The notes: generated from the sequence alone by a model not told the origin. DNA of 64,000 nucleotides from an uncultured delta proteobacterium (GCA_963745025.1 CAVUWD010000011.1:64001-128000); one strand, 5' to 3'. Numbered from the stretch's first letter, positions 4,809 through 55,275 are shown. Made by a program: numbers and translations.

Positions 4809-4965
4809 GTAGGGCCCCGGTCTTCGCCGAGAACGCGCCGCCAAGACAGAAGACGCGGCTGGCTGCCGTCGATCCGTACTCGGGTCGACGGCAGCCAGCC
4901 GCAACCGCGCGGAGCGCGGAAGGGAATCGCCCTGCGGATTCGTTCATCGCTTCCGCACTCTGCGC
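4809..4965. mobile_element. MITE-like hairpin element, copy A (right end degenerate)
   Basis: Left TIR GTAGGGCCCCGGTCTT (4809-4824). 48-nt hairpin 4855-4902 with core TCCGTACTCGGG. Mini-hairpin CCGCGC-GGA-GCGCGG at 4905-4919. Confidence 0.75.
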
Positions 4966-4981
4966 GCCGGCTGCTCGACGA

Positions 4982-6019
4982 ATGATCCGAGACACCCCGC
5001 GCGCCCTCGGCTACCGCATGCCCGCCGAGTGGGAGCCACACGCTGCGACGTGGCTCTCCTGGCCCCACAACGTCGACAGTTGGCCCGGAAAGTTCGAGCC
5101 CGTGCCGGACATCTTCGCCCAGATCGTCGCCACGCTCCACGAGCACGAGGCGGTCCACATCCTCGCCGGCAGCGCCGATCTCGAGGACTCGGCACGCCGG
5201 GCGCTCCGCGCGCGCGGCTGCGAAGCGCCGAACGTGCGCTTCTTCCGGATCCCCACGAACGACGCCTGGATGCGCGACCACGGGCCGATCTTCGTCGTCC
5301 ATCCCGAGCGCGGGCTGGCGCTCACGAAGTGGAAGTACAACGCCTGGGGCGGCAAGTATCCGCCCTACGATCTCGACGACCAGGTGCCGGCGCGGATCAA
5401 CGAAGATCTTCGCTTGCCGGTCTTCGAGCCCGGCATCGTCCTCGAAGGAGGATCGATCGACGTGAACGGTCGCGGGACGTTGCTGACGACCGAATCGTGT
5501 CTCTTGAATCCGAATCGCAATCCGGGGCTCGCCCGGCTCGAGATCGAAGAACGCCTGCGCGCCTATCTCGGCGTGGAGAACGTGCTCTGGCTCGGCGACG
5601 GGATTGTCGGCGACGACACCGACGGGCACATCGACGACCTCAGCCGATTCGTCGATCCGACCACCGTCGTCACTGCCGTCGAGGACGATCCCGCCGACGA
5701 GAACTACCGCGCGCTGCAGGCGAACCACGATCGGTTGCGAGCGATGAAGGATCAGAGTGGGCGGCGGCTCGACGTCGTCACGCTGCCGATGCCGCCCGCG
5801 ATCTACTACGACGGCCGCCGCCTTCCAGCGAGCTACGCGAACTTCTACATCGGCAACGGCGCCGTGCTGGTACCGGTCTTCGGCCACCCCCGCGACAATG
5901 TCGCCTGCGATACGCTCGCACGCCTCTTTCCTGGGCGTCGAATCGCGCGGATCCCGTCGACCGATCTCGTCTGGGGGCTCGGCGCGATCCATTGCGTGAC
6001 CCAGCAGCAGCCCCGCTAA
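4982..6019 (+). CDS. aguA: Agmatine deiminase
   Basis: RMPAEWEPH, NDAWMRDHGP, LEGGSIDVNG, DDTDGHID, ASYANFY, GAIHCVTQQQP. Confidence 0.93.
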   Translation: MIRDTPRALGYRMPAEWEPHAATWLSWPHNVDSWPGKFEPVPDIFAQIVATLHEHEAVHILAGSADLEDSARRALRARGCEAPNVRFFRIPTNDAWMRDHGPIFVVHPERGLALTKWKYNAWGGKYPPYDLDDQVPARINEDLRLPVFEPGIVLEGGSIDVNGRGTLLTTESCLLNPNRNPGLARLEIEERLRAYLGVENVLWLGDGIVGDDTDGHIDDLSRFVDPTTVVTAVEDDPADENYRALQANHDRLRAMKDQSGRRLDVVTLPMPPAIYYDGRRLPASYANFYIGNGAVLVPVFGHPRDNVACDTLARLFPGRRIARIPSTDLVWGLGAIHCVTQQQPR

Positions 6020-6093
6020 GGGCAAGCTCGACTTTCGGGATCCGACCGCCGCGACCGGCTCGACGTTCTGTAGCGACCGAATCGATCGTCGGA

Positions 6094-6122
6094 TTGACTG
6101 AGTGCCTGCGGAATCCTACCTT
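6094..6122 (+). promoter_or_regulatory. sigma70-type promoter for the mutase (probably leaderless or very short leader)
   Basis: TTGACT-N17-TACCTT, 9 nt upstream of ATG 6132, with no SD. Confidence 0.55.
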
Positions 6123-6131
6123 CGGCCGGTC

Positions 6132-7802
6132 ATGGCGGATGCCAAGGAGATCGACGAGGCGCGGCACGCCTGGGAAGAGCGGGCGGTCATCAAGACGCTC
6201 AAGAAATCTCCCGAGCGCCGGGAGAAATTCGAGACCAGCTCCGGCGTCGAGGTGAAACGGCTCTACACGCCGTCCGACACCGCGAGTCACGATTACCTCC
6301 GCGACGCCGGCTTTCCCGGCGACTATCCCTTCACCCGCGGCGTGCAGCCGACGATGTACCGCGGCCGATTCTGGACGATGCGGCAATACGCGGGCTTCGG
6401 CACGGCGGAGGAATCCAACCGCCGCTATCGCTATCTTCTCTCGCACGGCACGACCGGTCTCTCGGTCGCGTTCGACCTGCCGACGCAGATGGGTCTCGAC
6501 TCGGACCACCCGCGCGCCGTGGGCGAGGTGGGCCGCGTCGGCGTCGCCATCGACTCGCTCGACGACATGGAGACGCTGCTTCGCGGCATCCCGCTCGACA
6601 AGGTTTCCACCTCGATGACGATCAACGCGACCGCGTCGATCCTGCTCGCGCTCTACCTGGCGGTCGCCGAGAAGCAAGGCGTGCCCTGGGAAAAGGTCAA
6701 CGGCACGGTCCAGAACGACGTGCTCAAGGAATACATCGCCCGCGGCACCTACATCTATCCGCCAGCGCCGTCGATGCGCATCATCACCGACATTTTCCGC
6801 TTCTGCACCGAGCGGGTGCCCAACTGGAACACGATCTCGATCTCGGGCTACCACATCCGCGAGGCAGGCTCGACGGCGGTTCAGGAAGTCGCGTTCACGC
6901 TCGCCAACGGCATCGCCTACGTCGAGGCGGCGCTCGGTGCCGGTCAGAGCGTCGACGATTTCGCACCGCGTCTCGCGTTCTTCTTCAACGTCCACAACAA
7001 TTTCTTCGAGGAGATCGCCAAGTTCCGTGCGGTGCGTCGGCTCTGGGCGAAGATCATGCGCGAGCGCTTCGGCGCCAAGGAGCCGAAGAGCTGGATGCTC
7101 CGCTTCCACTCGCAGACCGCGGGTTCGACCTTGACCGCGCAGCAACCCGACAACAACGTGGTTCGCGTGACGGTGCAGGCGCTCGCCGCCGTGCTCGGTG
7201 GCACGCAGAGCCTGCACACGAATTCCCGTGACGAGGCGCTCGCGCTGCCGAGCGAGGCGGCGGCCAAGCTCGCGCTGCGAACCCAGCAGATCGTGGCCTG
7301 CGAGTCCGGTGCGGCCGACACCATCGATCCCATGGCCGGCAGCTACTACGTCGAGTCGCTGACCGACGAGATCCAGGGCCGCGCCGAGGAATACCTCGGA
7401 CGGATCGACAAGATGGGCGGCGCCGTGCGGGCGATCGAGGCAGGCTTCCAGGCGCGCGAGATTCAGAACGCGGCCTACCGCTTCCAACAGGACATCGAGA
7501 AGAAAAGGGAGATCGTCGTCGGCGTCAACGACTTCGTCGAAGACAAGGAGTTGCCGACCGAGATTCTACGGATCGATCCGAAGCTCGAAGAGGAGCAGAA
7601 GGTGCGGGTTCGGGCCGTGCGGGCCCGTCGCGACGCGACGCGCGCCGCGCAGGCGATGGAGGCGCTCGATCAAGCGGCCGCGGGCCGCGACAACCTGATG
7701 CCCGCGATCATCGAGGCCGTGCGGAGCTACGTCACGCTCGGCGAGATCTCCGACGTGCTCCGGCGCCGTTTCGACGAATACCGTCCGCAGATCGCAGTCT
7801 GA
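6132..7802 (+). CDS. Methylmalonyl-CoA mutase, large (substrate-binding) subunit
   Basis: [63 protein letters not shown]. No B12-binding DxHxxG domain, so it is the split type. Confidence 0.92.
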
Positions 7803-7805
7803 AGA

Positions 7806-7860
7806 GCGGCTACCGGCTTCCGGCAAAGACATCGCGCACTCTATTGCGGTAGCCGGCAGC
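7806..7860. repeat. Heptamer-armed inverted repeat (GCTACCG family)
   Basis: GCTACCG-GCTTCCG ... CGGTAGC-CGGCAGC just after the mutase stop; near-identical to 33623-33676. Confidence 0.6.
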
Positions 7861-8028
7861 TGCATCGGCCGGAGACGGTTCGCGACCAACGGGAGCGATC
7901 CGCAATGCAGCCTCCTCGCGCGGGAGACGCTTCCGCTCGCCTCACAAGTGAAGCGGGTGTCAAGCATCTGCGAAAGTTTGCGCTTCCCGTTTACAGCCGA
8001 GCCACGACGCGCTATCGAGACCAGATCG

Positions 8029-10140
<2,112 letters not shown>

Positions 10141-10147
10141 CGCTCCG

Positions 10148-10402
10148 GCGACGACTCAGGCTTGGCCACACGCGCTGGAAATTCCTGAAGCCGCTGGATC
10201 TTCCGGTCGGCCCGTGCTCGGGTCGACCGGAAGATCCAGCCACCGCGCGCAAGCGCGGAGAGCAATAGACCATCTCGTGGGTTATTAGCTTCCGCGCTCC
10301 GCGCGGTTGCGGTCGGTTGTGATCGGCCCGTACTCGGGTCGATCACAACCGACCGCGCTCTTCGTCGTTCCGAAGCATTCGAGGCGAAGACTGAGGCGTC
10401 AC
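10148..10402. mobile_element. MITE-like hairpin element, copy B (full length, 255 bp)
   Basis: TIRs GCGACGACTCAGGCTT / AAGACTGAGGCGTCAC. Two 48-nt hairpins (10193-10240, 10309-10356) and two inward-facing mini-hairpins. TSD is decayed. Confidence 0.85.
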
Positions 10403-10435
10403 GCGGCGCGAAATTTTCTCCGCGAAATTTTATTC

Positions 10436-10464
10436 TTGACTCCTCCGTTGACGAGTCCTAAAGT
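10436..10464 (+). promoter_or_regulatory. Strong sigma70-type promoter with AT-rich upstream element
   Basis: TTGACT-N17-TAAAGT, preceded by a tandem CGCGAAATTTT repeat. Confidence 0.7.
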
Positions 10465-10470
10465 GACCAC

Positions 10471-10575: not shown

Positions 10576-10599
10576 CCCGTGTCTCGCTGCTTGCTATAG

Positions 10600-12633
<2,034 letters not shown>

Positions 12634-13945: not shown

Positions 13946-13949
13946 CCGC

Positions 13950-22519: not shown

Positions 22520-23238
22520 GTGGTCGCCCAGAAGACCAGCGCGACGGTTTCGGCGATCGCGCCCGCCGCCCCGAGGACGTCGCCGGTGACGCCGCCGAAG
22601 GCCGACACCGCGAGCCGCCGCACCCCCGCCGCCGTGGCCGCGACGAGCAGTGTGGCGAGCCACCCGCGCGCTCCGGCAACGACGGTCACGAGCCCGATCG
22701 TGACGAGCGTGGCGATGACGACGTCGCCGCCCTCGAGGTCACGAGCGAACCGCGCCCCGAGCCCTTCGTCCCGGGCGCTCGAGGCGCGAAAGCCGCTCAC
22801 CAGCATGGCCCAGCGACCGAGTACCGGCGACACGACGAGCGCCGTCGCGCGAGCGCGGCCGGAGAGTTCTGCGAGCGCGGCGAGATCGGTGGCGACGATG
22901 AGCACGAGCCCGAGGGCGGCGAAAACACCGATCGCGGGGTCGTGCATGATGCGCAGCCGCTCCTGTCGCGTGGAGCCGCCGAGCGCATCGAGGACGTCGG
23001 CGAGGCCGTCGTAATGAATCGCACCCGTCGCCAGCGTCCAGACCAAGAGGATCTCCACGTTGCGGAGGCCTTGAGGAAGAGCCCTCGTGGCGACGTCCGC
23101 GGCGAGGCCAGCGATCCCGAGCACGAGCCCGACCAGCGGAAACGCGCTCGCTCCGAAAGCAGGCGTGGCATTGGACGCGGCGAGCGGCAGGCGCGTCAGG
23201 AAGCGCAGCGCACCGGCGAAGTCGTCAGCGATCTTCAC
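22516..23238 (-). CDS. cobS: Adenosylcobinamide-GDP ribazoletransferase (cobalamin synthase)
   Basis: FLTRLP, TGAIHYDGLAD..D, IMHDP.IG.F, GGVTGDVLGA. Confidence 0.93.
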   Translation of the reverse strand: MKIADDFAGALRFLTRLPLAASNATPAFGASAFPLVGLVLGIAGLAADVATRALPQGLRNVEILLVWTLATGAIHYDGLADVLDALGGSTRQERLRIMHDPAIGVFAALGLVLIVATDLAALAELSGRARATALVVSPVLGRWAMLVSGFRASSARDEGLGARFARDLEGGDVVIATLVTIGLVTVVAGARGWLATLLVAATAAGVRRLAVSAFGGVTGDVLGAAGAIAETVALVFWATT

Positions 23239-24055
23239 GCGCAGACTCCCGATCCCCCGTCGCGCTCACGCGGCCGAGCGGCAGGACGTTGAGCTTTCCC
23301 GTGAGATCGTTGCGGTGCACGTAGACGTCGGTGTCGTACACCTCGCGGATCGTCCGATAGTTGAGCACGTCGTCGGGATTGCCGCAGGCGACCACACGGC
23401 CCGCCTTCAGAAAGGCGAGGCGGTTCAGGTAGAGGGCGGCAAGATTCAGATCGTGAAGAACGACGATGAGGGTCATCCTCCGCTCCTCGGAGAGCGAACA
23501 GAGAAGCTCGAAGATCTCCACCACGTGGCGGATGTCGAGAAACGTGGTCGGCTCGTCGAGCAGCAGGACCTCGGGCTCCTGGGCGAGCGCGCGAGCGATC
23601 ACGACCCGCTGCTTCTCTCCCCCGGAAAGCTCGTGAAAGAACCGATCGGCGAGATCGGCGACGCCGGTGCGCTCCATCGCGCGTTCCGCCGCCTGCACGT
23701 CGCGGTCGCCCTCGAAGCCGAACCCGCCGAGGTGCGGGGCGCGGCCCATCAGCACGACTTCCATCACCGAGAACGGAAAGTCGAGCGCCGTCTCCTGGGG
23801 AACGACCGCGATCGAGCGAGCGAGCTCACGCGGCGCATAGGCGTCGAGGTCCCGAGATGCCAAGGTGATTCGTCCCGTCGAGGGACGGAGCACACGGGAG
23901 AGCAGACGAACGAGCGTCGACTTCCCGGACCCCGTCGGCCCGAGGATGCCAAAACGCTCGCCTCGCGGGATTTCGAGCGCGACGTCCCGCAGCACCCCGC
24001 GATCGCGGTAGGCGAAGCTCACACGCTCGATCTGCACGAAGGGCTCTCGGGTCAC
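23225..24055 (-). CDS. btuD: Cobalamin/iron-siderophore ABC transporter ATP-binding protein
   Basis: GPTGSGKS, LSGGEKQRV.IARALAQEP, LLDEPT, VLHDLN; in the B12 operon; start at GTG 24055. Confidence 0.85.
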   Translation of the reverse strand: MTREPFVQIERVSFAYRDRGVLRDVALEIPRGERFGILGPTGSGKSTLVRLLSRVLRPSTGRITLASRDLDAYAPRELARSIAVVPQETALDFPFSVMEVVLMGRAPHLGGFGFEGDRDVQAAERAMERTGVADLADRFFHELSGGEKQRVVIARALAQEPEVLLLDEPTTFLDIRHVVEIFELLCSLSEERRMTLIVVLHDLNLAALYLNRLAFLKAGRVVACGNPDDVLNYRTIREVYDTDVYVHRNDLTGKLNVLPLGRVSATGDRESAREDR

Positions 24056-24056
24056 G

Positions 24057-24329
24057 GTAACGCCCCAGTCTTTGCTAGAGAAGGGCTCCCGCGTTGTGCG
24101 GCAGAAGGAACGGCGCGTGGTTTTGCGGTCGATCCGTACTCGGGTCGGCCGCAAAACCACGCCACCGCGCGAAGCGCGGAAGGCAATACCCAAGGCGCGG
24201 CTCGAACCGCTCCGCGCTTCGCGCGGTGGCGCGTGTTTGTGTTCGATCCGAGTACGGCTCGAACATAAACACGCGCGCTGATCATTCTGCGACGGCTTTG
24301 CTGTGTTCTAGCAAAATCCGGGGCCTTAC
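24057..24329. mobile_element. MITE-like hairpin element, copy C (273 bp), inserted between btuC and btuD
   Basis: TIRs GTAACGCCCCAGTCTT / AAATCCGGGGCCTTAC. 8-bp TSD GGGTCACG / GCGTCACG (7/8). Hairpins at 24115-24162 and 24229-24276. Confidence 0.88.
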
Positions 24330-24337
24330 GCGTCACG

Positions 24338-25381
24338 TCAGATCCCGCGACCTTCCTCCTGCCGTCGCAGCAGGAAAACGAAAAACGGACCGCCGCAGAG
24401 CGCCGTCAGCACCCCGACGGGAATTTCGGTCGGCGCGAACAACGTGCGCGCGGCCGCGTCGGCCCACACCAGAAAGACCGCGCCGCCGAGAAAGGCGGCG
24501 GGAATCAGTAGCCGCTGGTCCGAGCCGAAGGCCAGGCGCAGACAGTGCGGCACGATGAGGCCGACGAAGCCGATCACGCCGCTCACCGAGACCGACGCGC
24601 CGACGAGGAGAGCGGAGGAGAGAAAGCTGACCGTGCGCACGCGATGGACGTCGGCACCGAGCTGGGTCGCCGTCTCCTCGCCGAGCGCGAGCAGATTCAG
24701 GCTTTGCGCTTGCGTCCAAAGAACGATTGCGGGCGCCACGGTGAGCAGCGTGACCAGCGCGACGAGCGAATACGGGCGCTGCGCCAAGCTGCCGCTCAGC
24801 CAGACGAGCACGCCCTGCGCGCGCAACGAGTCCACCAGCGCGGTCACCAGCATGATCACCGCTGCGGCGATGGTGTTGGCGATCACGCCGACCAGCAGAA
24901 GTGAATACGGATTCAGTCGTCCGTGCACGGTCGAGAGGCGGACGATCGCCGCGAGGGTGGCGAGCGATGCCACGAATGCGGCGCCGGGCACGAGGATCCA
25001 TGCCGGGCCGCCGACGCCGAGGGCGAGCACGCCGATCGCCCCGATCGAGGCTCCCCCAGAAATGCCGATCACGTCGGGACTGGCGAGCGGATTGCGGAGC
25101 AGCGCCTGAAGGGCGGCGCCCGCGGCAGCGAGCCCTCCGCCCACGACGGCGCCGAGCAGCACACGCGGCAAGCGACTACGGAAGAAGATCACGAAGTCGG
25201 CGTTCTCGGGATGGGCGAAGTCGAACACGCGCCTGAAGTCGATCGAGACGCTACCCACCATCGCAGCACCGATCAAGCTGAGAACGAGCAGAGCGCCGAG
25301 CGCGCAGATCACCGTGCGGGCATCCTCGCGGGTCAGCCGCGCCCGCCGCGTGCCCAGTCGCAGGGCTTCAAGCCGAATCAC
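24338..25381 (-). CDS. btuC: FecCD/BtuC family ABC permease
   Basis: RLPRV, QALLRNPLASP, LGEETA..LG, GVIGFVGLIVPH, EIPVGV.TA..GGPFF. Confidence 0.9.
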   Translation of the reverse strand: MIRLEALRLGTRRARLTREDARTVICALGALLVLSLIGAAMVGSVSIDFRRVFDFAHPENADFVIFFRSRLPRVLLGAVVGGGLAAAGAALQALLRNPLASPDVIGISGGASIGAIGVLALGVGGPAWILVPGAAFVASLATLAAIVRLSTVHGRLNPYSLLLVGVIANTIAAAVIMLVTALVDSLRAQGVLVWLSGSLAQRPYSLVALVTLLTVAPAIVLWTQAQSLNLLALGEETATQLGADVHRVRTVSFLSSALLVGASVSVSGVIGFVGLIVPHCLRLAFGSDQRLLIPAAFLGGAVFLVWADAAARTLFAPTEIPVGVLTALCGGPFFVFLLRRQEEGRGI

Positions 25382-26280
25382 CGAACGCCGGCCTCCCCGG
25401 CAAAGGCCTCGGGATGGATCAGGCGCGCAAGCAGCTCCAATCCTTGCCCGACGCGCGGCCCCGGGCGAAGCACCTCGTCGATGCGAATCGTGTGCACGCG
25501 CCCCGCGCTCGCGGCCTCTAGGCCGAGATCGTCGTAGAACGAGCGCGCGCCGCTCGCCTCGTCGCCCATGCTCGAGTCGATGATCACCTCCGGCGAGATC
25601 TTGACCAAGAACTCGACCGACAGCCGCGGCCAGCGCCCGAGGGCAGCCGCAACGTTCTCGGCTCCGGCCGCGCGGAGCAGCTCGTCGAGCAGGTTCTGAT
25701 CGCCGACGGCGATCAGCGGGTTCTCGCCGACGATCATCAATACGCGGACGCGGCGCAGCGGCGCGACGCGGCGGCGAACGGCGTCGACTTGGCCGCGAAG
25801 CCGCGCGACCAGCTCGCGGCCCGCCTCGGGCCGGCCGGCTTCGCCGGCGATCTTGTCGATCGAGGCGTAGATGTCGGCGAGCGTCGGGCCCTCTTCGACG
25901 ACGACCACCTGAAGGCCGAGTTCGATCAGCGACTCGACCGCCTCGCGGTTTCCCGGGCTCGGCACGGCGATGACCACGTCGGGCCGGTGGGCGACGACCG
26001 CCTCGATGTTCGGCTTCAGATAGGAGCCCACGCGGTCCAAGCGGCGCGCCTGCGGTGGAAAATCGGAGAGATCCGAAACCCCGACGACATCCTCCCCCGC
26101 TCCCACGGCAAAGAGGGTTTCGGTGACGGAGGGCGCCAAGGAGACTATGCGCTTGGCCTGGGCCGCATGTGCGCCCTGGCTACAGGCTACAGGTTTCAGG
26201 CTACAGGAAAAGACAACGACACAAAGAAGGATCCTTGCCGGTAGCCTGTAGCCCGTAGCCGGTAGCCGCCGTGTCCTCAA
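25378..26280 (-). CDS. btuF: Cobalamin-binding periplasmic protein
   Basis: RIVSLAPSVTE.LFA.G, DFPP, PNIE, RPGPR. Start is uncertain; the N-terminus contains heptamer repeats. Confidence 0.85.
   Translation of the reverse strand: MRTRRLPATGYRLPARILLCVVVFSCSLKPVACSQGAHAAQAKRIVSLAPSVTETLFAVGAGEDVVGVSDLSDFPPQARRLDRVGSYLKPNIEAVVAHRPDVVIAVPSPGNREAVESLIELGLQVVVVEEGPTLADIYASIDKIAGEAGRPEAGRELVARLRGQVDAVRRRVAPLRRVRVLMIVGENPLIAVGDQNLLDELLRAAGAENVAAALGRWPRLSVEFLVKISPEVIIDSSMGDEASGARSFYDDLGLEAASAGRVHTIRIDEVLRPGPRVGQGLELLARLIHPEAFAGEAGVR
26178..26268. repeat. Heptamer-armed inverted repeat inside the btuF 5' end
   Basis: GGCTACA-GGCTACA-GGTTTCA-GGCTACA ... CGGTAGC-CTGTAGC-CCGTAGC-CGGTAGC. Confidence 0.75.
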
Positions 26281-28220
26281 AATTCCCCTCCGACGCCGGC
26301 GAGGAAGGCGAGCGGGCGTGCGTCGAATCCGAGCACCTCCTGATAGTGCTCGTCGAATAGGTTTTCGATCCGCGCGAAGATCTTGAACCGCTTAACGATC
26401 TGGGTCGCGAGCGGCCACGAGTACGTCGACGTCAGGTCGACGCGCTGGTAGGCGGGGTTTTCGCGGGCCGCGAAGCCTGCGGCCGGATCGAAATCGAGCC
26501 GATTCCCCACTAGGAGCAAGCGCGCGTCGGCCGACAGGCGATCGCCGCCCTGCCAGCGGTTCGTCAGCTCGGCAGACACGTGGACGGCTCCGCTCTGGCG
26601 CGGCTTGCGTACGCGACCGTCCGTGCTGGCGTCGATGTCGAGGTACGTGTACTCGCCACCGGCGCGGATGCCTTGCAGCAGCTCCACGTTGAGAATCGCC
26701 TCCACCCCATCGACCGTCGAGGCGCCGACGTTCTCCGCGAGGAAGAGACCGTCCGGCTGTGGCACGCCGACGATCAGATCGGTGACGTGGCGGTGAAAAT
26801 AGTTGGCCGACACCAGCACCCGTTCGTCGGCGAGCGGCTGGTCGAATCCGACGTTCACCTCCCAGCTGTGCTCGGCGTCGAGGTTGGGGTTGCCGAATCC
26901 GGGGAAGAAGAGCTGATTCAGCGACGGCGCCTTGAATCCCTGCGCGTAGGTGGCGCGCAGCCGCGTCTTGGTGGCAGCGACGGCGTAACTCGCTCCGCCC
27001 GACGGGCTCACCGCTTCGCCGAACCGCTGGTTGCCATCGACGCGAACGCCGCCCGTCAGCACCAGGCGGCGATCGTCGAAAAACAGTTGGTGGAGCGTGT
27101 AGCCGGCGACGTTGCCAACGCTCTTGTCGAACACGGTGCGGGAGGTGCCGAAGGTCGGGTCCTCGAAGGTCGAGTCGGCGTTTCCGGACTGATCCTCGTA
27201 CTCGATGCCGATCGTGCTCTCGAGCGTGCCCCCGAGCGAGGAGAGCGTCGCACTCGCGTCGCCGGTATACGTCTGCGAGAGAAAGTCCGAGAAGAGGCTC
27301 GTCGTCTCCGCCGCATCGGCCGGGTCGTCGAACTGCTCGTCCTCGCGCGCGTATGAGAAGCCGATCCGATAACGAAGCGCGGGGTTCAGCGCGTGGCTCC
27401 ACTCCGCGCGCGTGTAGTCGACCTGATCCTTCTGGCGCGCGTTGGGATCCGGCGCGGCGAGAAAGTTGTTGCTCGCGAAGTTACCGAACTCGGAGTTGCC
27501 GATGCGGAAGATGACCCGCGCGGTGCCATTCTCGACGAGGTTGGCGTCGAGCCGCCCCGAGGCCACGGTGTTCTCGTAGTCGTCGTTTTCGGGTTTGAAG
27601 CCGTTGGTATGAATGTGCGAGGCGCTGCCGGAATACGCGAAGATGCCGCTCTGGCCGGAGAACTCGCCGACCTCACGATCGGTGCTCGCGTTGCCGCCGG
27701 ACGCCGCAATCGAGCCGCGCGGCGGTCCGGAGCCCTGGCGAGTAAAGATCTGGATCACCCCGCCGACCGCCTCCGAGCCGTAGAGAGTCCCGCCCCAGCC
27801 GCGTAGCACCTCGATCCGTTCGATGTTCTCGGGCGTGAGACCGGCGAAGTCGAATGCGCCTGTCGTCGTGCTGTTCACGCGGATGCCGTCGATCAGCACG
27901 AGCACCTGATCGGCGTCGGCTCCGCGCATGAGGACCGAGACCACCGAGCCTCGCGACCCGCTCTCGATGACGGTGAGCCCCGGTACCTCGCGGAGCGCGT
28001 CGGCAACGGTCGGGACCTGCTTGCGCTCGAGCTCCTCACCGGTGACTACGGTGATCGCCGGCGCCGTCTCCGAGACGCGCTCCGGCGATCGCGTGGCCGT
28101 GACCACCATGGTATCCATCTCGAGTTCGGCGGGCGGCTTCGCCGCTTCGTCTGCTTCCGCCGAGGCGACCCGCCCGGCCGCCGCTAGCAGGCCCCACACG
28201 ATGATCTGCGTTCGCTTCAT
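26277..28220 (-). CDS. btuB: TonB-dependent receptor, probable cobalamin transporter
   Basis: Signal peptide, TonB box MVVTATR, plug motifs VLVLIDG and IERIEVLRG...LYGSEAVGGVI, C-terminal F; first gene after the B12 riboswitch. Confidence 0.9.
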   Translation of the reverse strand: MKRTQIIVWGLLAAAGRVASAEADEAAKPPAELEMDTMVVTATRSPERVSETAPAITVVTGEELERKQVPTVADALREVPGLTVIESGSRGSVVSVLMRGADADQVLVLIDGIRVNSTTTGAFDFAGLTPENIERIEVLRGWGGTLYGSEAVGGVIQIFTRQGSGPPRGSIAASGGNASTDREVGEFSGQSGIFAYSGSASHIHTNGFKPENDDYENTVASGRLDANLVENGTARVIFRIGNSEFGNFASNNFLAAPDPNARQKDQVDYTRAEWSHALNPALRYRIGFSYAREDEQFDDPADAAETTSLFSDFLSQTYTGDASATLSSLGGTLESTIGIEYEDQSGNADSTFEDPTFGTSRTVFDKSVGNVAGYTLHQLFFDDRRLVLTGGVRVDGNQRFGEAVSPSGGASYAVAATKTRLRATYAQGFKAPSLNQLFFPGFGNPNLDAEHSWEVNVGFDQPLADERVLVSANYFHRHVTDLIVGVPQPDGLFLAENVGASTVDGVEAILNVELLQGIRAGGEYTYLDIDASTDGRVRKPRQSGAVHVSAELTNRWQGGDRLSADARLLLVGNRLDFDPAAGFAARENPAYQRVDLTSTYSWPLATQIVKRFKIFARIENLFDEHYQEVLGFDARPLAFLAGVGGEF

Positions 28221-28438
28221 GATTCCCCCTCGGGATCGAGGAGCGCGTCGGGCGACAGGCTCCTTGCCGCAGGGCGCGGCGCGATGACCGAGACGGGAAG
28301 GTCTGCGGGAGGCGACTCCTGCCCGTGAACGAAACGGGGGCTGATTTTTCGGGAGGCTCACTCCTGCCACCTTCCCCTTTCGGAAGGCTCGCCGCCCCGG
28401 AAGCGAAGAACTTCGCCGCCGGGCACCTGGCAGTACCG

Positions 28439-28620
28439 ATCAGGCAGGTCTCCTGGCTCGGGCATCATCCGAAACGAGCGGCCTTCCCATCCTCTGCGTG
28501 AGGACAGTGGCCTTCCCTGCTCGTTTCGTCCGCCCTTACAGTTGCGGGGCAGCGCCGGACTCTCACCGGCTTCCCTCTTTTCCGCTCCGGGCCCCATTGG
28601 TCCGGCGCGGGAACCTGACG
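28439..28620 (-). promoter_or_regulatory. Cobalamin (AdoCbl) riboswitch
   Basis: Minus strand AGGTT...AAGAGGGAAGCCGGTGAGAGTCCGGCGCTGCCCCGCAACTGT...GCCACTG...GGGAAGG...GAGCCAGGAGACCTGCC (B12 box). Confidence 0.96.
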
Positions 28621-28635
28621 GCTATGTCGGCAGCC

Positions 28636-28710: not shown

Positions 28711-28961
28711 GTCTCCCCTCAGTCTTCGTCACGAATGCTGCGCGAAGATGGAACGCGCGGTCGGTTGTGATCGGCCCGGATTCGGGTCGATCACAACCGA
28801 CCGCAACCGCGCGGAGCGCGGGAGACAATAACCCACCGAATCGGCCTATTGCGTTCAGCGCTTCGCGCTGTTGCGCTTGGTTTTCGTCGATCCGAGTACG
28901 AATCGACGGAAACCAAGCGCGTTTTTCGTGTCCGAGCATCCTACAGAGACTGAGGCCCTAC
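28711..28961. mobile_element. MITE-like hairpin element, copy D (251 bp; opposite orientation to copy B)
   Basis: TIRs GTCTCCCCTCAGTCTT / GAGACTGAGGCCCTAC. Perfect 8-bp TSD AAGAGGAG (28703-28710, 28962-28969). Hairpins at 28757-28804 and 28873-28920. Confidence 0.9.
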
Positions 28962-46942: not shown

Positions 46943-47084
46943 GTAATGCCTCAGTCTTGGCCACACGCGCTGGAAGATCCAGCCACCGCGCGCAAGCGCG
47001 GAGAGCAATAGACCATCTCGTGGGTTATCGGCATCCGCGCTCCTCGTCGTTCCGAAGCATTCGAGGCGAAGACTGAAGCGTTAC
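46943..47084. mobile_element. MITE-like element, copy E (142 bp; both long hairpins deleted)
   Basis: TIRs GTAATGCCTCAGTCTT / AAGACTGAAGCGTTAC. Perfect 8-bp TSD GCTGCTTG (46935-46942, 47085-47092). Colinear with copy B. Confidence 0.9.
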
Positions 47085-49198: not shown

Positions 49199-50241
49199 TG
49201 AGCCCCGTCCGCCGCTCGCAGCGGGCCCTTCTCGTCGCCGTCGGCCTCTTCGCCGGGATCGCCGCCGGAGAACTCCTCTTCCGGGTCGTCCCCTTCGAGC
49301 GCGTGAAATACGAGATTCGCTACGGTCACTTCAGCGGAAACCAGGTCAGCCGCTTCCTCGAGTACGACCCGGTCCTCACGTTCCGCAACCGCAGCTCGGC
49401 ATCGTTTCCCGATGCGGGTGTCGAGATCAACTCGCTCGGCCTTCGTGGCCCCGAAATCCGGGACCCCAAGCCGCCCGGCCGCTGGCGCGTGGTCTGTCTC
49501 GGTGATTCCTGCACGTTCGGCGCGGCGCATCCCTATCCGCAGACCCTGCAATCGATGCTGGACGAGCGAGCGCCGGGAGCCTTCGAGATCGTGAACGCGG
49601 GGGTGATCGGCTACACCTCGCTCCATGGTCTGGAGTGGTTCGAGCGCGACCTCGCCCGTCTCCGTCCTGACGTCGTAACGCTCTACTTCGGATGGAACGA
49701 CATGTGGCGAGAAAAGGATTCCGCGGTGCGCGGGTGGTTCAAGAGTCGGATCGCCGGCGAGCATCGGCCGTGGTTTCGCAGCTACTTGTGGGAGGCCGTC
49801 CAGCGGAGCGTGGTCTTTCTCGCCAATACCTTCGGGTTGTCCGCGCTGCAGGTGCCTCCTGAACAGTACCGCGCCGTACTCGATCGTTTCGCGGCGCTCG
49901 GGCGTGAACAGGGGTTCACCGTGATCTACCTGACGGCTCCATCGGGATTCGACGACGACCACACGCCGCAGTGGCTGATCGACCACGGCTTCGTGGCGCG
50001 CGGCGACAGCGCGCCGGCGCTTCGCCGCGCCTACAACCAGATCGTCGCCGAGGCCGCGGCGCGCGAGAAGAGCCCGCTCGTCGACTGCGCCGCCGATTTC
50101 GACCGCTCCGGAGGTCGCACGCTCTTCGCAGACCCCGACCATGACCCGATTCACCCGAACGGCGAAGGCTATCGGCGAATCGCCGCGGCGCTCGCGGAAG
50201 AGCTGCTGCGCCTCAGGACCTCCCGCGCGGCTTCTGGATGA
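49195..50241 (+). CDS. SGNH/GDSL hydrolase family protein, membrane-anchored
   Basis: INSLGLRG, CLGDSCTFG, NAGVIGY, FGWND, DPIHPN. Confidence 0.88.
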   Translation: MMSPVRRSQRALLVAVGLFAGIAAGELLFRVVPFERVKYEIRYGHFSGNQVSRFLEYDPVLTFRNRSSASFPDAGVEINSLGLRGPEIRDPKPPGRWRVVCLGDSCTFGAAHPYPQTLQSMLDERAPGAFEIVNAGVIGYTSLHGLEWFERDLARLRPDVVTLYFGWNDMWREKDSAVRGWFKSRIAGEHRPWFRSYLWEAVQRSVVFLANTFGLSALQVPPEQYRAVLDRFAALGREQGFTVIYLTAPSGFDDDHTPQWLIDHGFVARGDSAPALRRAYNQIVAEAAAREKSPLVDCAADFDRSGGRTLFADPDHDPIHPNGEGYRRIAAALAEELLRLRTSRAASG

Positions 50242-50453
50242 ACGCAGCGAAGCCCTCGGCGACCTCTTCCGAAACGAACGAATCGGTGAACGTCTCGCAC
50301 CTCATGCGCAACAGATGCGGTTGATGTCGCGCGTTCCGTGATACAGTTCGATCATGCAGGCGTTGCGACGCTCGGGCGGTCCAGGGCGACGGTCACGGCT
50401 CCTCCTTCCAGGTTGTCACGGAGGTACTTCGAACCTAGAGTCGCCCCTGCCAT
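50213..50453 (-). pseudogene. Collapsed enoyl-CoA hydratase remnant
   Basis: Crotonase-like N-terminus (MAGATLGSKYLR...GAVTVALDRP) and C-terminus (ETFTDSFVSEEVAEGFAAFIQK) lie within 240 bp, with stops and frameshifts between them. Confidence 0.5.
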
Positions 50454-50474
50454 GCTCAGCCTCCGGGAGGACCC

Positions 50475-50840
50475 ATGACGGGAAGGGAAGCGATGCTGCA
50501 AGCCTTCGACCGGCTCTTTGACCGTGCCGCGAAGAAGCTCCATGTCGAGTGCTCCGTCGACGAGAAGGAGTCCGCCAAGAAGCAGTTCGAGGCTCGCTTC
50601 GCGGCGCTGCTCGAAGGCCTCGATCAGGTGACGGTCAACGACGTTCCCGACGAGGTCATCACCGGCATGGAGAACGCCATCGACCGCATCACGCCGACCG
50701 AGGTCGTCGGCCTTCTCGCCTCCATTCCGATCGCCCACCAGGGCCAGGAGATGATGCGTCAGCTCGCCTACCGAGCCGCCGAGCAACGGCTGCTCGATCA
50801 TTTGATCCATCAGGCGGACGACCGCTACGGCGGCAACTGA
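50475..50840 (+). CDS. Hypothetical acidic helical protein
   Basis: 121 aa; strong SD GGAGGA; host-like codon usage; no motif recognised. Confidence 0.7.
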   Translation: MTGREAMLQAFDRLFDRAAKKLHVECSVDEKESAKKQFEARFAALLEGLDQVTVNDVPDEVITGMENAIDRITPTEVVGLLASIPIAHQGQEMMRQLAYRAAEQRLLDHLIHQADDRYGGN

Positions 50841-50990
50841 GTCCGCTCGTCAGACCAGATCCGGAATCCCAGTCCAGGCGGTTGGATCACCGGCTCCGCC
50901 GGTAGGCGCCTCCCCCGATAGGGCAATCGTCACGGTTCGGTTTGCAAGCCCGAAGAACCCCGGGGCATCATGCGGTGAGGACCAAGAAGG

Positions 50991-53177
50991 ATGACGCGTC
51001 GATCGGCAAGCGCCCCGGCGCAGGTTCCGAGATCACGCTCGAGCCGTTTCACGCTGCGGTTCCATTTGTTCTCGGAGACGGCGGCCGCGATCGTGATCTT
51101 GATCGGCGTCGCCGTGCTCGTCGGGTGGCTCTTCGACAACACCACGTTGAAGAGCCTTCACCCGGGCCTCGCCTCGATGAAGCCGAACGATGCCGTCGCC
51201 TTCATTCTCGCCGGCAGCTCGCTCTGGATGCTGCGCAGCGAGACCGCCGACCCGCGAAAGCGCAGGATTGCACGGAGCTTCGCCGTGGCGGCCTCGCTGG
51301 TCGGCCTGGCGACGCTCGCCGAGTACCTCCTCGGCGTGAGCCTCGGCATCGACCAGATCTTCTTTCAGGAGTCGACGGGAATGATCTGGACCTCACATCC
51401 GGGCCGAATGGCTCCGAGCGCGGCGCTCAATTTCCTTCTGCTCGGGCTCGCCCTCTTCGCTCTCGATCCGCGCAGCCGCTACTGGCTCGTCGAAGCGTTG
51501 GCGGTCGCGGCGATCTTCATCTCGCTGGTCGGTCTTCTCGCGCATCTCTATGCGCTCGAGCTGCTGCACGGCACTGGCTACTACACGCACATCGCATTCC
51601 ACTCGGCGGTGGCATTCTGCCTGCTCGCCGCCGGCATCCTCTTCGCGCGCCCGGACCGAGGGCTCGTGGCGATCGTCGCCAGCGAGACGGCGGGCGGGGC
51701 CATGGCGAGACGCGTGTTCCCCGTCGTGCTGGTGGTGCCGGGACTCCTCGCCTGGTTGAGCTTCGCAGGCCAGCGAGCCGGGTACTATCAGAGCGTCTTC
51801 GGGCTGGCGCTGCTGACGCTCGGCAACGTCATCGCGTTCAGTGTCGTCGTGCTGTGGAGCGCGCGCTCGCTCTACGATCTCGACGTCGAGCGCGAGCGAA
51901 CCGATGCGGCGCTGTGGCAAAATCGAGAGCGGTTTCGCCTCGTCGTCGACGGCGCGCGAGACTATGCGATCTTCCTGCTCGACGCCGACGGCTACGTGCG
52001 GAGCTGGAATCCAGGTGCGGAGCGGATCATCGGCTATCGTGAAGACGAAGTCCTCGGGCGGCACCTCTCGACCTTCTACCCGCTGGAGGATGTCGCGAAG
52101 GGGAAGCCGGAGCGCCACCTCGACACCGCCGTCTCCGAGGGACGGTTCGAGGACGAGGGCTGGAGAGTCCGCAAGGACGGCTCGCGGTATTGGGCCAACG
52201 TGATCCTCGCGCCGCTCGTCGGCGAAGACGGGAGGCTCTCGGGCTTTTCCAAGATCACGCGCGACATGACCGAGCGCAGACGGATCGAGGAGCAGCTGCA
52301 GGACGCGAACACGGAGCTTCGCAAGCGAGAGCAAACCCTGCAGGAGACGCTCGCCAGCCTGACGCGCACGCACGAGGCGCTGAAGAACGCTCAGCTGCAG
52401 GTGGTCCAAGCCGAGAAGATGGAGTCGGTGGGCCGTCTCGCCGCGGGGGTCGCCCACGAGGTCAAGAATCCGCTCGCCGTCATCCTGGCCGGGATCAACT
52501 ATCTCAGCGGGCGCTCGGCGGGGGACGAGACCGTCGCCTCCGTCCTCTCGGAAATGCAGAAGGCGATCGAGCGGGCCGATCAGATCATCGGCGGCCTGCT
52601 CGACTTCTCCGCGCCACGCAACCTGGAGCTCGGCATGGAAGACCTCAACGCGATCGTACAGCAGGCGTTCCTGCTCGTGAATCACGAGATCGAGAAGAGC
52701 CGCGTGACGGTCGTGCGGACGCTCGGCGAGGACCTCCCCCTCGTCCGGCTCGACAAGCGAAAGATCGAGCAAGTCTTCGTCAACGTGTTCCTGAACGCGA
52801 TCCAGGCGATGCCTGAGGGCGGCACGTTGACGGTCAAGACCTACGTCCGGGCGGCGATGGCGAGCGGACCGCCGGCGGGATCGAGGGGGACGTATCTGCT
52901 GAGGACCTTCGGACGCATGGTCGTGGCCGAAGTCGACGACACGGGCGCGGGCATCCCCGAAGGTCAGGCGCGCAAGATGTTCGAACCTTTCTTCACAACC
53001 AAGCCGACGCGCAAGGGAACGGGCCTCGGTCTGACGGTGAGCAAGGCAATCGTCGACATGCACGGCGGAAGAGTGGAGATTCGTAACCGCCCGGGGGGCG
53101 GTGCTCGCGTGTTGATCGTCTTGGATCCGAGAGGAGGTCGGGAAGATGCCCAAGAAGCGGCTGTTGCTCGTGGATGA
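50991..53177 (+). CDS. Membrane PAS-domain sensor histidine kinase
   Basis: About 8 TM helices, PAS (WNPGAERI.GY, RKDGSRYWA), H-box GVAHEVKNPL, PFFTTK, GTGLGL. Confidence 0.92.
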   Translation: MTRRSASAPAQVPRSRSSRFTLRFHLFSETAAAIVILIGVAVLVGWLFDNTTLKSLHPGLASMKPNDAVAFILAGSSLWMLRSETADPRKRRIARSFAVAASLVGLATLAEYLLGVSLGIDQIFFQESTGMIWTSHPGRMAPSAALNFLLLGLALFALDPRSRYWLVEALAVAAIFISLVGLLAHLYALELLHGTGYYTHIAFHSAVAFCLLAAGILFARPDRGLVAIVASETAGGAMARRVFPVVLVVPGLLAWLSFAGQRAGYYQSVFGLALLTLGNVIAFSVVVLWSARSLYDLDVERERTDAALWQNRERFRLVVDGARDYAIFLLDADGYVRSWNPGAERIIGYREDEVLGRHLSTFYPLEDVAKGKPERHLDTAVSEGRFEDEGWRVRKDGSRYWANVILAPLVGEDGRLSGFSKITRDMTERRRIEEQLQDANTELRKREQTLQETLASLTRTHEALKNAQLQVVQAEKMESVGRLAAGVAHEVKNPLAVILAGINYLSGRSAGDETVASVLSEMQKAIERADQIIGGLLDFSAPRNLELGMEDLNAIVQQAFLLVNHEIEKSRVTVVRTLGEDLPLVRLDKRKIEQVFVNVFLNAIQAMPEGGTLTVKTYVRAAMASGPPAGSRGTYLLRTFGRMVVAEVDDTGAGIPEGQARKMFEPFFTTKPTRKGTGLGLTVSKAIVDMHGGRVEIRNRPGGGARVLIVLDPRGGREDAQEAAVARG

Positions 53178-53535
53178 CGAGGAAGCGTTCGCGCGAATCC
53201 TCAAGCTGAACCTCGAAGAGACCGGCAGCTACGAAGTCGACGTCGAGACCGACGGCACCAAAGCGGTCGCGGCGGCGCGCGCTTTTCAGCCGGACCTGAT
53301 TCTGCTCGACGTCGTCATGCCAGACACCGACGGCGGCACGATCGGCGGCGAGATCCTCGCGGACAAGCAGTTGCACAAGATCCCGATCATCTATCTGACG
53401 GCGGTGGTCTCCCGAAAGGAGCTCGGGGGCCCGTCCGGCGTAGTCGGCGGGCGGCTCTTCGTCGCCAAGCCGGTCGAGAAGCAAGCGCTCATTCAGCTGA
53501 TCGAAGAGCAGCTGGCGAAGTCACGGCCGCACTGA
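53146..53535 (+). CDS. Single-domain response regulator
   Basis: LLVDDE, PDLILLDVVMP, YLTA, AKPV. Confidence 0.9.
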   Translation: MPKKRLLLVDDEEAFARILKLNLEETGSYEVDVETDGTKAVAAARAFQPDLILLDVVMPDTDGGTIGGEILADKQLHKIPIIYLTAVVSRKELGGPSGVVGGRLFVAKPVEKQALIQLIEEQLAKSRPH

Positions 53536-53555
53536 GCCGCGGCGACTGGGCGATC

Positions 53556-54089
53556 TCAGGAGGCGAGGCACACGGCTTCGTCGCCGACGCTGCCGAGGTT
53601 TCCCTCGACCTCGAGCCCGGATCGGCAAGCGTCGGCTTCGGCAGCGCTCGCCATCGAGCAGCTCCCGTCGAAGATCGCGCCGTCGTGGATCACCAGCCGG
53701 GGTGCGGTAACCGTGCCGCGGAGTCTGCCGGTCGCACCGATCTCGACCCTCGCGGTGGCTTGGATGTCGGCTGTCACCTCTCCCTCGATGACGACTTCGT
53801 TTGCCTGGATCTTGGCCTCCACCCGGGCTCCCCGCCGGATGATCACGGCTTCGCCCGCCACGATCTCCCCTGCGACTTCTCCGTAGATCCGGATGCTGCC
53901 CTCGAATCGGAGCTTCCCCGAGACCTGGCTTCCCCTGCCGATCCGGCCGTTCGGCTCGTCGTCTTCCGCCTCGACGGCAATCTCCGTCGGAGCCGACGGC
54001 ATCGCCACGGAAGGAAGCGTCAGGTCTTCGACGGCGTATGACGAATCGATGACCCTCGGCTCTTCGTTCCTGTGCCTAAAAAGGCTCAT
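53556..54089 (-). CDS. Bactofilin (polymer-forming cytoskeletal protein)
   Basis: IGRGSQVSGKL.F.GSIRIYG.V.GEI, VVIEG.V, L.I.DGAIFDGSCSM. Confidence 0.88.
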   Translation of the reverse strand: MSLFRHRNEEPRVIDSSYAVEDLTLPSVAMPSAPTEIAVEAEDDEPNGRIGRGSQVSGKLRFEGSIRIYGEVAGEIVAGEAVIIRRGARVEAKIQANEVVIEGEVTADIQATARVEIGATGRLRGTVTAPRLVIHDGAIFDGSCSMASAAEADACRSGLEVEGNLGSVGDEAVCLAS

Positions 54090-54146
54090 TTATCCCCCCT
54101 CATGGTGATTGCGCCGGATCTCTAGCCCTTCAGCGATCAATTGACT

Positions 54147-54162
54147 AGCAAGGTTAATGCCG
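54147..54162 (-). promoter_or_regulatory. sigma54 promoter of the bactofilin gene
   Basis: Minus strand CGGCATTAACCTTGCT = GG-N10-GC with TTGCT. Confidence 0.6.
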
Positions 54163-54212
54163 ACCCTTCGGCGGCAATTCCTGGGAAAGCTCGAAAGAGG
54201 ATCTGACCAAGT

Positions 54213-55118
54213 CTGTCCACTCGCACGCTCAAAAAGGTACGTACCGCGCTGCTGGCCGTCGCCCTGCTCGGCGTCTCCTGCAGCGGAACGTTCCATTCGC
54301 CGCCTCCGGCACCACACTCGCCAGACCCGTCGGCATGGTCCAGGGCGGACCTGACGATCGCCTACCTCGGGCATGCCTCCGTGCTGATCGACTTCGGCGG
54401 TACCCTGCTCCTGACCGACCCCACTTTCTACGATCGTATCGGCGCCGCGCTCGGTCCGATCACGATCGGCCCGAAGCGCCTCGTCGCTCCGGCCCTCGCT
54501 CCACCCGAGATGCCAAATCTGGACGCCGTGCTGGTCACCCACGCCCACATGGACAGCCTCGATCGCCCCTCGCTGCGGTCCCTCTCTGCCACGCCACTAC
54601 TGGTCGTTCCCGAACGCACGAGGGACCTCGTCGACGATCTCGGCTATCCGCGGGTCGTCGAGCTCGGTTGGGGAAAGCAAATCGCGGCGCCCGACGTCGT
54701 AATCGAGGCCGTGCCGATCCGCCATTGGGGCCGGCGATGGCCATGGGAGCGCTCGCGCGGCTACGACGGCTATCTCCTCTCTCGCGGCGACGTGCGTGTC
54801 CTGTTCGCGAGCGACACCGCCTATAGCCCCGAGCTCGCCGCCTATGCGAAGCGACGCCAGGTGACGGTGGCGATCCTCGGCATCGGCGCGTACGACCCGT
54901 GGATTTGGAACCACGAGAGCCCGGAGGAGGCGTGGCAGACGTTCGTGGAAAGCGGCGCACGCTACCTCATCCCCGTCCATTGGGACACGTTCCGCCTCGG
55001 CAAGGAGCCGGTCGGCGAAGCGATGCGCCGGCTCCTGGCTGTGGCCGGACCGCAGGCGAGCCGCGTGGTGATTCGCGAGATCGGCGAGACCTGGACGATC
55101 AGGCTCGGCGGGAGCTGA
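54213..55118 (+). CDS. MBL-fold metallo-hydrolase, probable lipoprotein (probable CTG start)
   Basis: YLGHASVLI, LTDP, THAHMDSLD, PVHWDTF. The frame is open upstream through the signal peptide/lipobox KKVRTALLAVALLGVSC to CTG 54213. Confidence 0.8.
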   Translation: MSTRTLKKVRTALLAVALLGVSCSGTFHSPPPAPHSPDPSAWSRADLTIAYLGHASVLIDFGGTLLLTDPTFYDRIGAALGPITIGPKRLVAPALAPPEMPNLDAVLVTHAHMDSLDRPSLRSLSATPLLVVPERTRDLVDDLGYPRVVELGWGKQIAAPDVVIEAVPIRHWGRRWPWERSRGYDGYLLSRGDVRVLFASDTAYSPELAAYAKRRQVTVAILGIGAYDPWIWNHESPEEAWQTFVESGARYLIPVHWDTFRLGKEPVGEAMRRLLAVAGPQASRVVIREIGETWTIRLGGS

Positions 55119-55162
55119 CAAGGGAGCGCTTCGAACGCGTCGCGACGTTGGCTTTGATGAGA

Positions 55163-55275
55163 GCGGGGCATGTTCCTGTCGACCCGTACTTGGGTTGACA
55201 GGAACATGCCCCGCCGCGCGGAAGCGCGGAAAGCAATAGCACGCCCGGGAATCGAACCTTCCCGCGCTTCGCGTT
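55163..55275. mobile_element. MITE-like hairpin element, copy F (partial)
   Basis: 48-nt hairpin 55165-55212 (core CCCGTACTTGGG), then mini-hairpin CCGCGC-GGAA-GCGCGG and AAAGCAATA. TIRs not clear. Confidence 0.75.

Follow-up and report, generated by a model that had tools for sequence, protein, structure and literature searches.

Correia/NEMIS, ERIC and RUP elements are intergenic repeats with terminal inverted repeats (TIRs); they form long stem-loops in transcripts and can alter mRNA processing. REPINs are inverted doublets of GC-rich palindromes whose pairing is under selection; they lack TIRs and target duplications and cluster around a RAYT gene. In attC sites, pairing counts for more than the letters of the stem. 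Other repeats are closer to mobile elements. According to the respective reports, bcr1 of the Bacillus cereus group is a transcribed repeat of ~155 bp with 5-bp direct repeats (PMC3184786), insertion sequences (ISs) of the IS66 family have inverted repeats that start with GTAAGCG and 8-bp direct repeats (PMC11946415), and ISDge4, a member of the ISBst12 group with a single open reading frame (ORF), has GTAACTGCTCAGCA ends and an 8-bp repeat (PMC12898284). Here, we analyse a 64,000-nt window (positions 64001-128000 of contig C11) of the genome of an uncultured delta proteobacterium, G000 (5.65 Mb in 20 contigs, 65.9% G+C, completeness 92.65%, contamination 7.6%). The window contains eight 48-nt hairpins, and we found that they are the two internal modules of a small, non-coding MITE (miniature inverted-repeat transposable element). 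We consider it probable that the element represents a new MITE family for which an IS66-family transposase acts in trans as the mobiliser, and that the pairing of its hairpins is kept by selection among master copies.

The hairpins had been listed in an earlier reading of the window that used the sequence alone (hereafter, the sequence-only reading). All eight were recovered exactly where that reading had placed them, the seven left arms are as it gave them with no more than one or two G-T-type mismatches per hairpin, and a mini-hairpin of the CCGCGC-GNA(A)-GCGCGG type stands next to each of the eight (at 28851-28872 in a variant form, CAGCGCG-AA-GCGCTG). Every hairpin consists of an 18-nt arm, a 12-nt core and a second 18-nt arm. 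Since the core CCCG-TACT-CGGG itself contributes 4 bp and a 4-nt loop, the true stem is 22 bp long, which corrects the earlier description. A covariance model built on the eight window modules returned exactly these modules as strong forward matches in the window (74-92 bits), and its other matches there are the same palindromes on the opposite strand. Both the model and a structure-pattern search found the module genome-wide: there are ~140 hairpins at ~83 loci, spread over 14 of the 20 contigs.

Several censuses of G000 were compared. A core scan (at most 3 core mismatches, at least 16 stem pairs) gave 157 matches; 21 of them were dropped as not belonging to the family and 1 was restored, which left 137 hairpins, counted as 55 pairs and 26 singles. 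A second, core-independent census anchored on the mini-hairpin identified 119 modules, 9 of which were new, and ~6 of these new candidates are true hairpins that have either an indel or an extended tip. The covariance model produced at least 150 matches. Several of the singles do have a partner that the core scan overlooked (e.g. C2:195340 and C11:414215).

Inspection of the hairpins together with their flanks revealed that the sequence is kept for ~45 nt outward from each hairpin and that the outer ends on either side of a hairpin pair repeat each other in inverted orientation. The element begins with GTAAYGCCTCAGTCT... on one side and finishes with ...AGACTGAGGCRTTAC on the other, giving GTAAYGCCTCAGTCTTCGCC as the TIR. 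A CCTCAGTCTT-like motif could be placed in 75 of 137 half-elements. Conservation starts 6 bases upstream of this motif with G-T-R-A, and beyond that point the base composition of the 75 half-elements is random. In the window, the terminus pattern matches 5 times versus 0.17 expected. From the outside inward, the order is TIR, a variable spacer of ~25 nt, the 48-nt hairpin, a 15-nt GC mini-hairpin and an AT-richer centre (CAATAG...TATTG), after which the second half follows as a mirror image with a hairpin of its own. Full copies are 244-274 bp long, i.e. under ~600 bp, and encode nothing. Two copies in G000 (C5:173222-173529 and C16:85402-85709) have a 32-34-nt insert in the centre, which forms a new palindrome with 10-bp arms and is flanked by an 11-nt direct repeat; the same insert is present in a contig from a sediment metagenome (run X2, at window 10272-10275).

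The MITE is flanked by 8-bp target-site duplications, examples being CTCCCGCC, GATCGTCC, AGGCGGGC, AAGAGGAG and GGCGCTCG. Of the 55 paired elements, 31 allowed the placement of both terminal motifs, and these were compared with 124 shifted controls. The duplication is perfect in 5 elements, has one mismatch in 2 and has 2-5 mismatches in the remaining 24, whereas the controls contained no perfect duplication and a single one with one mismatch. This systematic test did not extend to a young subfamily whose right end is variant; duplications assigned to it by eye include two that are perfect, two with one mismatch and one with two mismatches.

When a whole element is folded as a single strand, either DNA or RNA, the predicted structure is a four-way junction. 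In this prediction, the outer stem is made of the termini, pairing between the two mini-hairpins gives a central stem, and the 22-bp hairpins project as side arms. The predicted fold is very stable: for two whole elements, z-scores were -15.0 (DNA) and -11.7 (RNA), and none of 200 shuffled sequences folded as well.

A likely source of the transposase resides in the same genome. An IS66-family element of 1,882 bp is present in G000 in three identical copies, and its boundaries were set by extending the identity between copies. At both ends the IS starts with GTAAGGCCTCAGTCTCCGT..., its terminal ~19 nt are common to the IS and the MITE, and some half-elements agree with the IS end over ~21 of the first 22 nt. 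Two of the IS copies are flanked by perfect 8-bp duplications (AACGATCG and CTTCTGGA). The IS codes for a 468-aa protein with DDE_Tnp_IS66 (PF03050, E = 6e-38) and zf-IS66 domains and has a 105-aa DUF6788 ORF; TnpB_IS66 (PF05717) was not found in G000, which is 92.65% complete. The IS66-type DDE domain, the GTAA ends with 8-bp repeats and a single-transposase organisation without TnpB_IS66 are all features of the IS66 family or of its ISBst12-like group, and the combination of a single transposase with a small DUF6788 ORF and no TnpB makes the element similar to the ISBst12 group. Given its three identical copies, the same terminal ~19 nt and the same 8-bp duplication, we infer that this IS is the mobiliser of the MITE; the match of ends and of duplication length is what points to it. 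Two of the IS copies (C6:484414-486295 and C6:486304-488185) are arranged head to tail with 8 bp between them. The 8-mer in between, CTTCTGGA, recurs after the second copy, as if that copy had inserted at the end of the first.

Insertions of the MITE are polymorphic among relatives. The genome of a congener, G001, shows synteny with the window (84-90% identity), interrupted in the alignment precisely at the MITEs. Of four window loci that were compared, three (10148-10402, 24057-24329 and 28711-28961) are empty in G001, and at the site corresponding to 24057-24329 it has one copy of the duplicated 8-mer. At the fourth, corresponding to 4809-4970, G001 (C5:197296-197534, L055) has instead an unrelated tandem duplication of ~136 nt that takes in the 3' end of the upstream gene. 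Across 8 genomes of the family, the covariance model detected, in addition to the modules of G000, 38 modules in G001 and 5 in G005 but none in the other 5 genomes; the module is thus present in 3 of 8 genomes, which represent two genera. With BLAST, it was detected in 4 of 41 relatives. In G005, which belongs to the second genus, the termini, spacer length, hairpin and mini-hairpin are kept and the loop is different. A cognate IS was also searched for by protein in G001 and G005 and was not found, which at 82-84% completeness is not evidence of absence. G001 has an IS66 element of its own, 2.43 kb long and present in three copies (C13:37199-38461, C27:15720-16982 and C27:439659-440924), with 8-bp duplications and with ends unlike those of the MITE.

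Beyond the family, a pattern scan of 185,579 species genomes gave 13 stretches. Eight of them are in one metagenome-assembled genome (MAG) of an uncultured delta proteobacterium, and the remaining 5, single matches in unrelated MAGs, are taken as chance. Among the sequencing runs searched, none contained as many as half of the query words. In sediment DNA, the MITE is covered by contigs of high summed depth that break off at its ends, as is typical of repeats. In one RNA run there was no contig over 9588-10679; as these are contig data, this says nothing on expression. Overall, the element is short and non-coding, has TIRs, generates a duplication of fixed length, exists as dispersed and polymorphic copies and is matched at its ends by an IS, as is expected of a MITE.

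The sequence-only reading had described the arms as hypervariable but self-complementary and had proposed, as one of two explanations, that they carry an exchangeable payload of ~12 nt. Self-complementarity stands, but hypervariability does not. Single-linkage clustering groups the arms into 17 classes that are related stepwise, and 99 of 137 hairpins belong to just two of them; the window happens to sample seven arms. Although individual arms differ at 1 to 14 of 18 positions, the classes have a common pattern (a GCG base, a T-rich middle and TCGR toward the loop), and the arms are mutually homologous rather than unrelated payloads. None of the 55 hairpin pairs is made of two hairpins of the same class. 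Since the two hairpins of an element always come from different classes, the halves of the element are old and distinct from each other; it is no random mosaic.

Counted as exact matches in the genome, the 12-nt arm middles occur 0-5 times outside the listed hairpins, and several of these occurrences are further hairpins of the family. They match nothing else in the genome above chance, contrary to what the notion of guide-bearing or attC-like sites implied. An integron attC or guide site is likewise not supported by the 12-mers or by the 17 classes; no search for an integrase gene was made. Longer copies that enclose an ORF are also lacking, as no inward-facing module pairs were found at distances of 300-8000 nt. 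What had been put forward as a candidate undescribed system is an element with TIRs and 8-bp duplications whose ends equal the ends of the IS66-family element that G000 also contains. Among the observations that the sequence-only reading had named as speaking against itself, a small number of arm subfamilies and a MITE structure were indeed found, while the absence of excess compensatory change was not. No match to an already described repeat family was found.

Compensatory change in the hairpins is real and strong. Along the edges of a minimum spanning tree over 118 distinct hairpins, we counted 90 two-sided changes in which both states pair, 14 other two-sided changes and 146 one-sided changes; only 17.35 same-pair coincidences would be expected by chance, versus the 90 compensated doubles. 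In an alignment of 46 modules from three genomes, 98.5% of cells are paired versus 82.1% after shuffling (0 of 500 shuffles as high), and the value falls to 27-39% when the partner is slid. In the long stem, 13 of 22 pairs have changed on both sides. The mini-hairpin provides no evidence of covariation, since 5 of its 6 pairs are invariant. The argument that simple drift would break the pairing is thus borne out, the excess of compensated changes being too large for drift alone, and it is fair to say that the hairpins keep their structure as the letters of the stem change.

This pattern could in principle arise if one arm were copied from the other. Under such self-templating, template switching during replication would restore complementarity without any selection, and half of new mutations would become compensated doubles at once. 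Replication template switching at quasi-palindromes is reported to be established in E. coli (PMC7202029). Traces of it are visible here too: in-place inversion has affected 3 of 131 oriented hairpins, among them the one at 10309-10356, whose loop reads TACT instead of the expected AGTA, and such an inversion requires an arm-to-arm event. The new 10-bp-arm palindrome in the centre of two copies and of a metagenome contig is consistent with the same process. In addition, 69 of the 90 compensated doubles are of the transversion type, which is hard to reach via a tolerated wobble intermediate, and persistent mismatches are located only beside the loop, where a switching primer would presumably anneal.

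However, self-templating is not expected to slow substitution, yet the core and the mini-hairpin are better conserved (pairwise identity 0.88-0.92 and 0.87-0.89, respectively) than the spacer and the centre (0.64-0.73 and 0.69-0.71). Short tree edges are mostly one-sided: among edges with at most 2 differences, 33 are single differences and 5 are compensated doubles. At least one non-Watson-Crick pair is present at positions 1-17 in 71 of 137 hairpins, and fixed, class-specific imperfections persist beside the loop, such as the G-T at 18/31 found in 70 of 137 hairpins. The conservation of the geometry, of the TCGR/YCGA feet and of the mini-hairpin over subfamilies and in another genus is also left unexplained. 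Re-templating of one arm from the other, which the sequence-only reading had offered as one explanation, has therefore left traces but is unlikely to be the main cause. Instead, the data argue for pairing that is selected rather than self-templated.

Losses of the hairpins provide a further indication. At six loci both termini are kept but one or both hairpins have been lost, in four clean cases by deletion between short direct repeats. Nevertheless, ~9 of 10 copies retain their hairpins, including copies of old subfamilies and of another genus. Because loss is irreversible and the hairpins are still widely kept, hairpin-bearing masters appear to out-multiply their derivatives. We suggest that an IS66-family DDE transposase would act in trans on the non-coding MITE and that the differences between arms would have arisen as the MITE family split into old subfamilies. 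Only masters with intact hairpins would have gone on multiplying, and in this way pairing would have survived, while single copies would then decay through ordinary one-sided mutation and palindrome deletion.

Several observations weigh against this scenario. The hairpin-less copy at 46943-47084 has a perfect target duplication, and two 200-bp copies with one hairpin each, found at different loci, have an identical deletion junction; hairpin-less forms may therefore still transpose. The master sequence of the youngest, active-looking subfamily contains 2-3 wobble or mismatched pairs, so perfect pairing is not required. Figures for arm conservation are partly circular, as it is the first 7 nt of an arm that define its class. 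Subterminal hairpins of 22 bp are absent from the IS itself, and the covariance model has no match inside it; its left end has only one 10-bp hairpin and its right end only weak ones. It follows that the transposase needs no such hairpins on its own element and that the MITE and the IS have only their termini in common. In G001, which has 38 modules, an IS with matching ends was not found in a genome that is 82% complete, and its IS66 relative is only 31-32% identical, with GTAACCGTTCAC ends. Finally, 24 of the 31 tested elements show no recognisable duplication (2-5 mismatches). Many of these are older copies, which have decayed.

With respect to the use of the fold, we lean weakly towards a role in the DNA form, either in transposition or in the stability of the element, over a role in mRNA. 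One specific version is that the four-way junction is a cis-acting structure read by its shape and not by its sequence, which seems rather unlikely to us. The features read would be the fixed-length 22-bp side hairpins, the kept imperfection by the loop and the central stem of mini-hairpins. The reader could be the IS66-family machinery, with its small DUF6788 protein, or else a junction- or double-strand-binding protein of the host. If this were true, the fold would give the MITE an advantage in multiplying over its hairpin-less derivatives, and the element would represent a structure-defined transposition substrate in a DDE family of poorly known mechanism.

A role in RNA would account for the covariation differently. 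The element would be a structured RNA, either a signal for mRNA processing or stability or a small RNA, and the compensatory changes would reflect selection by the host at the RNA level. Its position in the genome is compatible with this idea: each of the six copies in the window is intergenic, co-directional genes flank at least three of them, one of these within a transporter operon, and genome-wide 42 of 68 scorable loci are between co-directional genes. The predicted RNA fold is very stable as well, and a stem of 22 bp is near the length of an RNase III substrate. There is also a precedent, since bcr1 of Bacillus is reported to be transcribed and to have a cruciform-like RNA fold kept by compensatory changes (PMC3184786). 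On the other hand, at the 42 co-directional loci the sense strand has 18 wobble-type mismatches versus 26 of the A-C type (p = 0.29), so a preference for pairs tolerated in RNA is not apparent. The MITE is nearly symmetric and is found in both orientations, and the fixed G-T at 18/31 turns into A-C in one half of any read-through transcript. No T-run follows the window hairpins, and with Rfam 15 at the gathering threshold the only match in the window is a cobalamin riboswitch. Taken together, these points make a structured RNA quite unlikely.

Least credible of all is a REP/REPIN origin, with single-stranded hairpins moved by a RAYT/IS200-like tyrosine transposase, or a set of attC-like or guide-bearing 12-nt sites: although the hairpins occur in REPIN-like inverted doublets, pairing outweighs stem letters as in attC and G000 encodes two Y1_Tnp proteins (337 and 362 aa), a REP/REPIN-RAYT relationship is largely refuted, because neither Y1_Tnp locus has a module (with filters off, no model match is better than E = 0.25, and the nearest hairpins are >5 kb and ~27 kb off), the doublets lie inside TIRs with 8-bp duplications, which is the signature of a DDE transposase, the 12-mers are not above chance elsewhere and come from only 17 arm classes, and no inward-facing module pairs enclose an ORF. 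The two Y1_Tnp genes, which are IS200-like, are located at C13:188500-188823 (L001) and C11:419866-420189 (L002), and one of the encoded proteins has a weak DnaA-type helix-turn-helix at its C-terminus.

The copies of the MITE in the window, together with nearby features, are listed below. Clear termini were not found for copy 6. In copy 5, both 48-nt hairpins were deleted between short direct repeats; without them, this copy was beyond the view of the sequence-only reading, and the window thus holds a sixth copy.

MITE copies in the window and features in their surroundings; positions are counted from the first nucleotide of the window and strands are given in brackets
Feature	Position	State	48-nt hairpins	Other parts	8-bp duplication	Neighbours
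MITE copy 1	4809-4970	truncated	4855-4902	left terminus GTAGGGCCCCGGTCTT, mini-hairpin, centre; right hairpin and terminus gone		CN_hydrolase gene 3860-4798 (+); agmatine-deiminase-like gene 4982-6019 (+)
MITE copy 2	10148-10402	full, 255 bp	10193-10240; 10309-10356	two mini-hairpins; right terminus 10388-10402		arginine decarboxylase gene on one side, NAD-ligase gene on the other
MITE copy 3	24057-24329	full, 273 bp	24115-24162; 24229-24276		GGGTCACG at 24049-24056; GCGTCACG at 24330-24337	FecCD permease gene and ABC ATPase gene, both (-)
MITE copy 4	28711-28961	full, 251 bp	28757-28804; 28873-28920		AAGAGGAG, perfect	cobalamin riboswitch, its 5' end ~80 nt away
MITE copy 5	46943-47084	142-bp deletion derivative		both termini	GCTGCTTG, perfect	
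MITE copy 6	55165-55275	truncated or degenerate	55165-55212 (rare arm class)	mini-hairpin, centre, degenerate second mini-hairpin		
Polyamine gene cluster	3860-6019 and 7948-10140					
Short repeat or leader candidate	7864-7926					upstream of arginine decarboxylase gene
ABC ATPase gene	23225-24193 (-)					
FecCD permease gene	24338-25381 (-)					
TonB-dependent receptor gene	26277-28370 (-)					
Cobalamin riboswitch	28426-28633 (-)					ahead of TonB-dependent receptor gene

The riboswitch (106.9 bits) precedes the TonB-dependent receptor gene, and the FecCD permease and ABC ATPase genes are located further downstream on the same strand. One MITE is found ~80 nt upstream of this riboswitch and another separates the permease gene from the ATPase gene, so both may affect this B12-uptake locus. 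The polyamine cluster comprises genes for a CN_hydrolase (N-carbamoylputrescine-amidase-like), an agmatine-deiminase-like protein and arginine decarboxylase, and MITE copies occupy two of its intergenic gaps. The short candidate sequence at 7864-7926 has matches at no fewer than 25 places in G001 over 35-60 nt at 81-97% identity; it may be a further short repeat family or a conserved leader. More generally, window MITEs that lie between co-directional genes or beside a riboswitch leader may affect expression there, which matters for annotation.

These results remove one candidate undescribed system, as the hairpins are modules of a MITE, with arms that hold no payload. They also provide a clear natural pairing between a MITE family and an IS66-family element, in a family whose transposition is little studied. 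An elaborate four-way fold has been kept by compensatory change over subfamilies and genera even though palindromes are prone to deletion. With ~140 hairpins in 17 classes, the family is a clean data set to separate selection for structure from self-templating of palindromes.

Overall, we are dealing with an ordinary kind of mobile element that has an unusually well-kept fold. It resembles REPINs in its GC-rich palindromes, their arrangement in inverted doublets and the selection for pairing, but differs in having TIRs and 8-bp duplications and in not clustering at Y1 genes. Correia/NEMIS, ERIC and RUP elements are similar in their intergenic sites, TIRs and folding into long stem-loops; however, each of those is one long hairpin, whereas here two fixed 22-bp side arms, differing halves and a predicted four-way junction are found. 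As described, the MITEPsy1/ISPsy2 system (PMC3189936) is similar to ours in many respects. Like other IS-mobilised bacterial MITEs, MITEPsy1 is small and non-coding, its TIRs are near-identical to those of a resident IS, its duplication has the length typical of that IS, and its many, mostly intergenic copies are polymorphic among relatives. Unlike in that system, the partner here belongs to the IS66 family, with 8-bp duplications and GTAA... ends, only ~19-22 terminal nt are common with the IS, and the MITE has an elaborate conserved interior fold that is missing from the IS. In the literature searched, as judged from titles and abstracts, no description of an IS66-derived MITE or of this MITE family was found. 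The nearest precedent for a MITE-like repeat with a cruciform-like fold kept by compensatory change is bcr1 (PMC3184786): it too is MITE-like, has terminal direct repeats and is distributed in a way that is not conserved among relatives. The two come from different phyla, have different sequences and are presumably unrelated in sequence, and the family described here is distinguished by its length of ~250 bp, its 8-bp repeats and its cognate IS66-family element.

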